A stretch of DNA of 31,938 nucleotides from a virus. The DNA lies in the UHGV virus genome UHGV-0224535. One strand, given 5' to 3'. This document shows, one piece after another, positions 10,099 to 10,123 of this stretch (within the stretch, counting starts at the first letter, position 1; each line of letters begins with the position of its first letter). The translations under genes and the position numbers were made by a program. Under the pieces are notes generated by a model. The model worked only from the letters and a program-made list of their open reading frames with translations. It had not been told where the DNA came from and ran no database searches.

Positions 10099-10123
10099 AT
10101 TTTTCGCGTAGCAACGTGTAAAC
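10099..10123 (+). promoter_or_regulatory. conserved 25-nt motif ATTTTTCGCGTAGCAACGTGTAAAC (copy 1), upstream of portal
   Basis: 21 of 25 identical to 22536-22560 upstream of the gpM-like gene; contains CGYGTA direct repeats 10 bp apart. Confidence 0.45.

Follow-up and report, generated by a model that had tools for sequence, protein, structure and literature searches.

The stretch of DNA analyzed here, called the window throughout, is the 31,938 nt of virus genome UHGV-0224535. The region around the first of the two sites described below is 88-90% identical to seven Escherichia phages of the mEp (mEpimmI) group, including mEp021 (MH706966), and by sequence similarity the window is a phage of this group (mEp021-like), whose members are temperate E. 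coli phages. In the mEp021 annotation, the terminase large subunit and portal genes flank the first site and are followed by the tape measure, a reverse-strand block, and a minor tail protein. The features of the window that matter here are:

8512-9996, terL
9997-10063, + strand, 67-bp insertion that mEp021 lacks, adjoining the terL stop and before the portal copy of the element
10132-10136, + strand, AGGAG of the portal ribosome-binding site, with its ATG at 10145-10147
10145-11524, portal gene
19043-21382, tape-measure gene
21387-21407, bidirectional terminator-like hairpin after the tape-measure gene, closing the unit upstream of the reverse-strand cluster
21995-22249, - strand, 84-aa ParE-like toxin (PF24732, E 9e-11)
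22267-22422, - strand, 51-aa ORF
22493-22465, - strand, candidate divergent promoter of the reverse-strand pair: TTCACA (22493-22488), 17 nt, TATACA (22470-22465)
22512-22517, + strand, TATAAT, candidate -10 of a putative gpM promoter (P_M), diversity 0 at all six positions
22583-22588, + strand, AGGAGG of the gpM ribosome-binding site, with its ATG at 22593-22595
22593-22946, gpM gene
23151-23169, bidirectional terminator-like hairpin after gpM and a 75-aa ORF, closing the short gpM unit

Two copies of one element and their surroundings

A 25-nt element occurs twice in the same orientation, upstream of portal (ATTTTTCGCGTAGCAACGTGTAAAC, 10099-10123) and upstream of gpM (ATTTTTCGCGTAGAAGCGCGTAAAG, 22536-22560). 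A first-pass annotation of the window had paired these two sites, and its reading of them holds: both 25-mers are as first stated, they agree at 21 of 25 positions, and each contains CGYGTA hexamers 10 nt apart, start to start (10105/10115 and 22542/22552). The similarity extends past 25 nt, each copy being a 27-nt imperfect inverted repeat (10099-10125 and 22536-22562). The similar leader that was said to follow each copy is only partly borne out. Both copies in the window do continue with A-ATGTA...CAGGAG...ATG, but the gpM copy has ~10 extra bases. The Shine-Dalgarno sequence lies 8 nt beyond the 25-nt copy at portal and 22 nt beyond it at gpM; in relatives, moreover, the gpM Shine-Dalgarno is mostly AUAGGGGG or AUGGGGG, not CAGGAG.

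A degenerate pattern fitting both copies matches these two sites only in the whole window on either strand, and finds any match in 0 of 100 dinucleotide-preserving shuffles; a looser 21-nt pattern allowing up to three mismatches likewise returns the same two sites only. The search for further copies that had been proposed as a check thus gives two for the window, mismatch searches and a covariance model agreeing on this. The model, built from 24 distinct variants and run with filters off on the window and on 50 kb of mEp021, gives 51-59 bits for the four known copies (window portal 51, window gpM 58.4) and no more than 14 bits for anything else in these sequences, the next match having an E above 1. 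mEp021 itself has the same two copies at the same places and none besides. The octamer CGCGTAAA was considered separately as a packaging motif, and was rejected: it occurs 6 times against 2.1 expected, but the extra occurrences are Arg-Lys codons in terS and terL.

At the portal site, the 25-nt copy ends 21 nt before the ATG, and the 27-nt repeat ends 6 nt before the Shine-Dalgarno. The distance from element to portal ribosome-binding site is constant across relatives. The 67-bp insertion, present in roughly a third of family members (leader variants reading GCTACATAAAATCTG), indicates that the element is free in position relative to terL and fixed relative to the portal ribosome-binding site. 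The insertion is bounded by a TAA duplication and contains CTTCGAAAAATTTTCGAAG (10016-10034), which is a palindrome of 19 bp without mismatch, as well as a mini-ORF of 10 codons (10035-10067). An upstream ATG at 10124, inside the 3' arm of the hairpin described below, is in frame with portal in all family members and has no Shine-Dalgarno. In mEp021 (L001, 28919-28945) the usual portal ATG is ATA, and the record starts portal at the upstream ATG (equivalent to 10124 of the window); a TTG four bases past the lost ATG is an alternative start.

At the gpM site, the 27-nt repeat ends 20 nt before the Shine-Dalgarno and 30 nt before the ATG of a gene called Phage_min_tail (PF05939) in related contigs. 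The putative promoter P_M has a weak -35 (GTGAAT, 22489-22494), and the promoter scan did not flag it because this -35 is poor. The element starts 18 nt downstream of the TATAAT, corresponding to ~+12 to +36 of the predicted transcript, so that it would be transcribed within the gpM leader. Divergently, the candidate promoter of the reverse-strand pair has the family consensus TTCACA-N17-TATATA, both blocks of which are conserved; it too went unflagged in the scan, having no T at position 6. The 51-aa ORF and the ParE-like gene look, from their sequences, like a toxin-antitoxin module inside the tail genes. All family members examined have the pair inserted ahead of gpM, after the tape-measure gene, and the same arrangement occurs in 8 other contigs. 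In one relative (L093, IMGVR_UViG_2695420423_000006), a 157-aa ORF (MNWNDIFHYQEGEIYW...) stands ~55 nt downstream of the gpM-type element and before gpM; judging it by eye, we take it to encode an HNH-type homing endonuclease. The candidate promoter plus element cassette therefore precedes a different first gene there.

The first-pass annotation had also read the two copies as marking separately controlled transcription units. For gpM this reading is reasonable: with reverse-strand genes before it, terminators on both flanks and the TATAAT, gpM is probably its own transcription unit. For portal it lacks support, because the terminator scan predicts no terminator between terL and portal, so that nothing indicates a separate unit. 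Relatedly, a late-promoter-like region precedes the lysis genes at ~5128-5215 (TTTGTA-N18-TAAAAT, with a short leader). In this leader lies a strong terminator (5191-5209) with a T run behind it, an arrangement like that of lambda PR'-tR'. This PR'-like promoter and its terminated leader place portal inside a long lambda-type late operon. No Q-like gene was found inside the window. A 75-aa ORF upstream of the late-promoter-like region is flanked by the direct repeat GCCGTATTTGT, a region noted together with 4878-4890.

Reverse-strand genes and promoter-like sequences also stand before the tape-measure gene and before gpL (18740-19042 and 24303-24498), the latter being CCATTTTG-TATAAA at 18992 for the tape-measure gene and CCATTTTGG-TATGAT, with an extended -10, at 24446 for gpL. 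In this phage group the tail genes apparently fall into three or more short units, each closed by a terminator. Two further observations concern the head genes of relatives. Many portal homologues (PF06381, DUF1073; P0009-P0119) are named 'anti-CBASS protein Acb1 family' in NCBI; given their position, with terminase on one side and a Mu F-like head gene on the other, this looks like a wrong name that has spread from record to record; and in one contig (L402, 1722-2177) the Mu F-like head morphogenesis gene has an intein domain (PF14890).

Conservation and distribution

Diversity was estimated from alignments collected without reference to the element, comprising 32 distinct gpM leaders and 41 distinct portal leaders. 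The mean pairwise values were:

21 core positions: gpM 0.018, portal 0.005
3 central bases: gpM 0.24, portal 0.08
40 nt upstream: gpM 0.154, portal 0.164

The core is thus 8- to 30-fold less variable than the adjacent upstream non-coding DNA, in genomes whose coding regions differ by 10-20%, and both copies are clearly under strong purifying selection. At portal, the stretch from the element to the ATG is also nearly invariant across the 41 distinct sequences. Conservation extends beyond the fold to the sequence itself, which both sites share. TAG is kept after the first CGCG and TAA after the second, and the three bases following the TAG vary. The usual centers are GCAA at portal and GAAG at gpM, and these are swapped in some genomes; in two contigs the 20 compared bases are identical between the genome's own two copies (L013/L065 and L026/L081). 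The exchange of centers suggests that the copies are functionally interchangeable, and the shared centers indicate that both copies are selected for one partner, that conversion occurs now and then, or both. The element is non-random and conserved, and it is almost certainly functional.

Approximately 50 related genomes keep both copies at the same two places, two per genome. Scanning IMG/VR with TTCGCGTANNNNCGNGTAAA gave 106 stretches, ~89 of them from this phage family, and every complete family contig (50-57 kb) in that scan has two copies, before portal and before gpM. Retrieving the region without using the element, via flanking anchors, gpM, portal, or the neighboring 51-aa protein, recovered the element every time. 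Carriers number 30 among 5426 complete E. coli genomes, with no standard model strain among them. Portal homologues at ~60% identity (Enterobacter, Klebsiella, one unassigned) do not have the element; in its place they have a small ORF, a leader of unrelated sequence, or a spacer of 15 nt between terL and portal. Similarly, relatives of gpM at 62-68% identity are without the element and without the reverse-strand genes, the gene coming directly after the tape-measure gene or a terminator. When one genome per bacterial species was scanned with a transition-tolerant pattern, only A/T-rich chance matches came up, none of them in Enterobacteriaceae. On these comparisons the element is lineage-specific. 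Unrelated viral contigs (L019, L038, and others) also contain 20-mers resembling the element; these were set aside, as they have other contexts and are about as numerous as chance predicts.

Confinement to one lineage is also what would be expected of a functionless remnant of an old duplication or recombination, in which a leader cassette was copied and then kept alike by gene conversion. The swapping of GCAA and GAAG centers between sites in some genomes fits such a history, as does the putative homing HNH endonuclease gene between leader and gpM in one relative, which marks the region as recombinationally active. We nevertheless hold this explanation improbable, because the 8- to 30-fold deficit in diversity applies to two independent locations, variation is limited to the center and to wobble-compatible changes, sufficiently frequent conversion of a 25-nt tract 12 kb away is unlikely, and the similarity between family members runs unbroken through the element.

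Promoter, operator, or RNA hairpin

The first-pass annotation had proposed that each copy is a promoter or activator site with direct repeats one helical turn apart; in a CII-like form of this idea, the repeats would start separate portal and gpM transcripts. In its favor, the direct repeats have a 10-bp period, the CGCG-N6-CGCG geometry is that of lambda CII TTGC-N6-TTGC, each copy is upstream of a gene, and gpM very probably needs its own promoter since reverse-strand genes and a terminator precede it. The anatomy of a promoter or activator is nonetheless missing. A sigma-70 consensus scan of 6000-25000 on either strand finds no promoter that uses the element, and a portal -35 within it would place the start at or beyond the start codon. 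The best -10 candidates (TGTATT and TATTCA at portal, TATACA at gpM) lack A2 or T6, the bases of the gpM candidate (TATNCA) vary among relatives, and a transcript driven by the portal candidates would begin on the Shine-Dalgarno or the ATG. The invariant gpM TATAAT precedes the element instead of following it. Promoter-like sequences also stand at the two remaining + strand restarts, before the tape-measure gene and before gpL, and neither of these has a copy of the element.

The comparison with CII can be made more exactly. In a lambda CII site, the direct tetrads TTGC-N6-TTGC straddle a poor -35, and the -10 is ~12-13 nt after the second repeat. The bases 12-13 nt after the second repeat are AGGAGT, i.e., the Shine-Dalgarno, at portal and variable at gpM; on the minus strand the -10 positions hold TCATCA and CTTGTG. 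We therefore consider it very improbable that the element is a promoter or activator site.

Other element classes fared no better. Neither copy is in the terminator scan, and the order is wrong for an intrinsic terminator, the U run preceding the + strand stem and A-rich sequence following on the - strand. No boxA (CGCTCTTTAACAA-like, up to two mismatches) occurs within 100 nt of either copy, and the loops AGCA and AGAA are not GNRA. Rfam 15 gave no match in the whole window, and permissive scans of both sites gave chance-level matches only, with E above 5. A CpxR box (GTAAA-N5-GTAAA) is approached by the gpM copy at 9 of 10 positions and by the portal copy at 8 of 10, which is not significant: the window has 5 such boxes with at most one mismatch where 2.8 are expected, and 13 of 100 shuffles reach that number.

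The element can be drawn as a hairpin. Its flanks, ATTTTT and TAAANAT, are mutually complementary and conserved in both copies, as are the two CGCG blocks, and the + strand fold is AUUUUU-CGCGU-[AGNN]-NCGCG-(bulged U)-AAANAU. The whole element is then one 11-pair stem with one bulge, made up of six A/U lower pairs, a CGCGU/NCGCG upper stem, and a four-base loop, as follows:

10099-10125, + strand, portal hairpin; lower stem 10099-10104 (AUUUUU) with 10120-10125 (AAACAU), one U.C mismatch
10105-10109 (CGCGU) with 10114-10118 (ACGUG), + strand, upper stem of the portal hairpin, one G.U
10110-10113 (AGCA), + strand, loop of the portal hairpin; bulged U at 10119
22536-22562, + strand, gpM hairpin; lower stem 22536-22541 with 22557-22562
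22542-22546 with 22551-22555, + strand, upper stem of the gpM hairpin; loop 22547-22550 (AGAA); bulged U at 22556

Folding energy is better on the + strand than on the - strand for both copies:

gpM copy, + strand: MFE -9.3 kcal/mol, z -2.7, 1 of 200 shuffles as stable
gpM copy, - strand: MFE -5.0 kcal/mol, z -1.13
portal copy of the window, + strand: MFE -4.3 kcal/mol, z -0.24
portal family consensus (which has CGCG), + strand: MFE -6.2 kcal/mol, z -1.2
portal copy, - strand: MFE -1.8 kcal/mol, z +0.78

The pattern of variation mildly favors a + strand RNA stem. Across the 24 distinct variants, 94.7% of cells form standard pairs; 7 of the 11 pairs vary on one side only, staying paired through wobble, and none changes on both sides, the family being very uniform. 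Changes inside the CGCG blocks are only C to U, at three different C-G pairs (the window portal copy, L109, and L114/115), and all three keep + strand pairing through G.U. Changes of A to G or G to A opposite a U in the stem occur several times, again with pairing kept via G.U, and G to A in a C-G pair was not seen in the metagenome and genome collections, although the search pattern permitted it equally. By hand count, stem transitions among the 24 variants number ~7 pairing-preserving vs 1 disruptive (binomial p ~0.035). In the gpM consensus, moreover, the DNA palindrome has two flaws, and both are G.U pairs when read as + strand RNA. Most genomes have 6 nt between the CGCG blocks, but two independent variants have 5 nt (TAGAT in L110; TAGAG in L394/396/399), a difference that favors a loop because a loop tolerates a change of length, whereas phased DNA half-sites do so poorly.

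On the other hand, the portal lower stem always has its U.C mismatch and the portal fold is weak (-4.3 to -6.2 kcal/mol; z -0.2 to -1.2). Some variants break pairs, namely one portal U to C beside the bulge and the GAAT center, which gives U.U. Compensatory double changes were sought among the 24 variants and none was found; with no such covariation the hairpin is not proven. The CGCGTAG-NNN-CGCGTAA pattern of conservation fits two 7-bp direct DNA repeats as well, and the conserved TAG after the first CGCG is explained by direct repeats, not by the hairpin.

These last points bear on the main rival to the hairpin, that the element is a double-stranded DNA operator for a phage or host regulator, read as two CGCGTAR repeats 10 bp apart or as the inverted arms TTTTCGCG/CGCGTAAA. 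The tandem heptamers predict a kept TAG followed by three variable bases, as observed, and the operator reading gains also from the fixity of sequence rather than of pairing alone and from the lack of RNA covariation. Taken as half-sites, however, the repeats are 9 instead of 10 bp apart in two classes of variants, although the element is fixed in other respects; a one-base offset between the inverted arms deprives the site of two-fold symmetry; and all three CGCG-block changes preserve + strand RNA pairing.

The positions of the copies can be weighed in the same way. An operator at gpM could repress the upstream promoter from ~+12 to +36, like lac O1, or act on the divergent promoter; at portal, it would act as a roadblock or a reservoir site. 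Toxin-antitoxin modules usually repress their own promoter through a DNA operator, and the gpM copy has a ParE-like pair of this class as its neighbor, within a divergent promoter region, so that the reverse-strand pair (the 51-aa protein plus the 84-aa ParE-like toxin) might supply the binder. Yet the element is ~45 bp upstream of the -35 of the best candidate reverse-strand promoter, not over it, and the portal copy has neither a toxin-antitoxin context nor, in the scan, a promoter to regulate. The mEp021 immunity region contains no similar sequence, and the match to the host CpxR box is at chance level. An operator of this kind accordingly seems somewhat unlikely to us, and taken together the evidence mildly favors a + strand RNA hairpin over a double-stranded DNA site.

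A proposed shared leader element among known systems

Our preferred reading, held tentatively and with appreciable doubt, is that the two copies are one shared leader element acting in RNA, through which a sequence-specific trans factor sets portal and gpM translation or stability. The element would form a small bulged hairpin in the untranslated leaders of portal and gpM, immediately before their ribosome-binding sites. The portal copy would be carried in the terL-portal spacer of the long late transcript, and the gpM copy on a short transcript from the promoter 18 nt upstream, as well as on any read-through late RNA. One trans factor, be it a phage or host RNA-binding protein or a nuclease, would recognize both copies and so might set, together, the translation or mRNA stability of two assembly-initiating genes, portal and gpM (the first tail-tip gene). 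A single sequence-specific factor is suggested because one sequence, and not merely a common fold, is kept at both sites. What the sequences show is the element's position, copy number, conservation, potential to fold, strand-biased substitutions, and want of promoter or terminator anatomy; its action as RNA, the trans factor, and its output we infer.

Simple steric repression of translation would be unworkable at gpM because the hairpin, being 30 nt from the ATG, is outside the ribosome footprint. No RNA- or DNA-binding candidate is recognizable among 30 small ORFs by PHROG and Pfam annotation, and a search elsewhere in the phage for a complementary stretch (an sRNA or antisense partner) gave nothing beyond chance. 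A bolder version of the leader-element reading, which we think quite unlikely, would have portal and the first tail-tip gene form a small post-transcriptional regulon, controlled via the shared hairpin by a dedicated phage protein, atop Q-type antitermination; such a regulon would possibly be linked to the neighboring reverse-strand toxin-antitoxin-like genes.

The element resembles several known systems. Like the boxB of nut sites (lambda, P22, mEp021), it has a short G+C-rich stem of 4-5 pairs and a purine-rich loop, is carried on a phage transcript, and recurs with unchanged sequence elsewhere in the genome. The loop at gpM reads UAGAAG (UGGAAG in one relative) and is similar to the UGGAAGU loop of an mEp021 hairpin beside a boxA-like CGCTCATTAAC, a hairpin that we assign by our own unpublished reading of the sequence. 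Unlike boxB, the element has no boxA-like sequence upstream, its loop is not GNRA-like in most genomes, it is next to the ribosome-binding sites of late structural genes rather than after an early promoter, and it has a bulged A/U lower stem.

The coat-protein operators of RNA phages (MS2, PP7) are small hairpins with one bulge, close to a start site, through which one protein controls specific genes. The element shares with them the one bulged base, a loop of 4-6 nt, and conserved sequence and fold near a start. Those operators contain the start codon or Shine-Dalgarno, however, whereas the hairpin of the element ends before the Shine-Dalgarno, and they belong to RNA phages with a known binder, whereas the element is in a double-stranded DNA temperate siphovirus and its binder is only postulated.

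With lambda CII sites (pRE, pI, paQ) the element has in common tetrads 6 bp apart and several copies per genome; it differs in having no -10 at the required distance, in its 1-bp variation of spacing, and in being sense before late structural genes. Intercistronic processing or stabilizer hairpins of the T7 RNase III type are likewise conserved structures in late-mRNA spacers upstream of a gene. A U-rich single-stranded tract beside a stem is the usual context of RNase E cleavage. Compared with RNase III substrates, the element is much shorter (11 pairs plus bulge), and it occurs in two copies only, not before many genes. The element thus matches boxB, coat-protein operators, CII sites, and processing hairpins in single respects only, and in each case the defining feature that could be tested is absent, be it boxA, a placed -10, an Rfam match, or a U run after the stem.

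As far as its sequence tells, we are dealing with a real, conserved, and previously undescribed cis-element of an ordinary kind, either a leader hairpin or an operator. The structural genes of mEpimmI phages are unusually broken up by reverse-strand insertions and internal terminators, and an element common to their portal and gpM leaders would offer a first way into how these genes are tuned. The practical consequence is small: this is a lead for a phage laboratory, not a surprise for the field. Phages of this group are reported as common in the human gut as lambdoid phages (PMC11893012). The regulation treated in the searched main text of that paper, which defines the mEpimmI group, consists of the immunity repressor and N-like early antitermination with its nut sites, a Q-like protein being mentioned in the discussion; term searches of the same main text found no mention of the element.

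A different motif emerged from the same sequences. In the window, 2.1 occurrences of the nonamer CATWTTGTW are expected and 13 are found, a number reached in 0 of 100 shuffles; mEp021 has 17, against 3.5 expected. Sites in the window include 2753-2788, 18966-19001, 22496-22504, 22566-22574, 24385-24393, 24422-24430, and 31249-31257, and those in mEp021 (L001) include 11927, 20078/20144, 37649/37676, 42050, and 43922. The copies are mostly intergenic, at switches of coding strand, and often form inverted pairs (TACAAAATG-N18-CATTTTGTA); often a -10-like hexamer follows (TATAAA, TAAACT, TATACT), and one copy is beside the mEp021 early rightward promoter. Two copies flank the gpM element. Long-range pairing between these flanking CATWTTGTA motifs was considered and dropped, since the variants do not covary. 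CATWTTGTW looks like a promoter or operator motif that the internal and early promoters of these phages have in common, and for regulation it may prove a better lead than the leader element.
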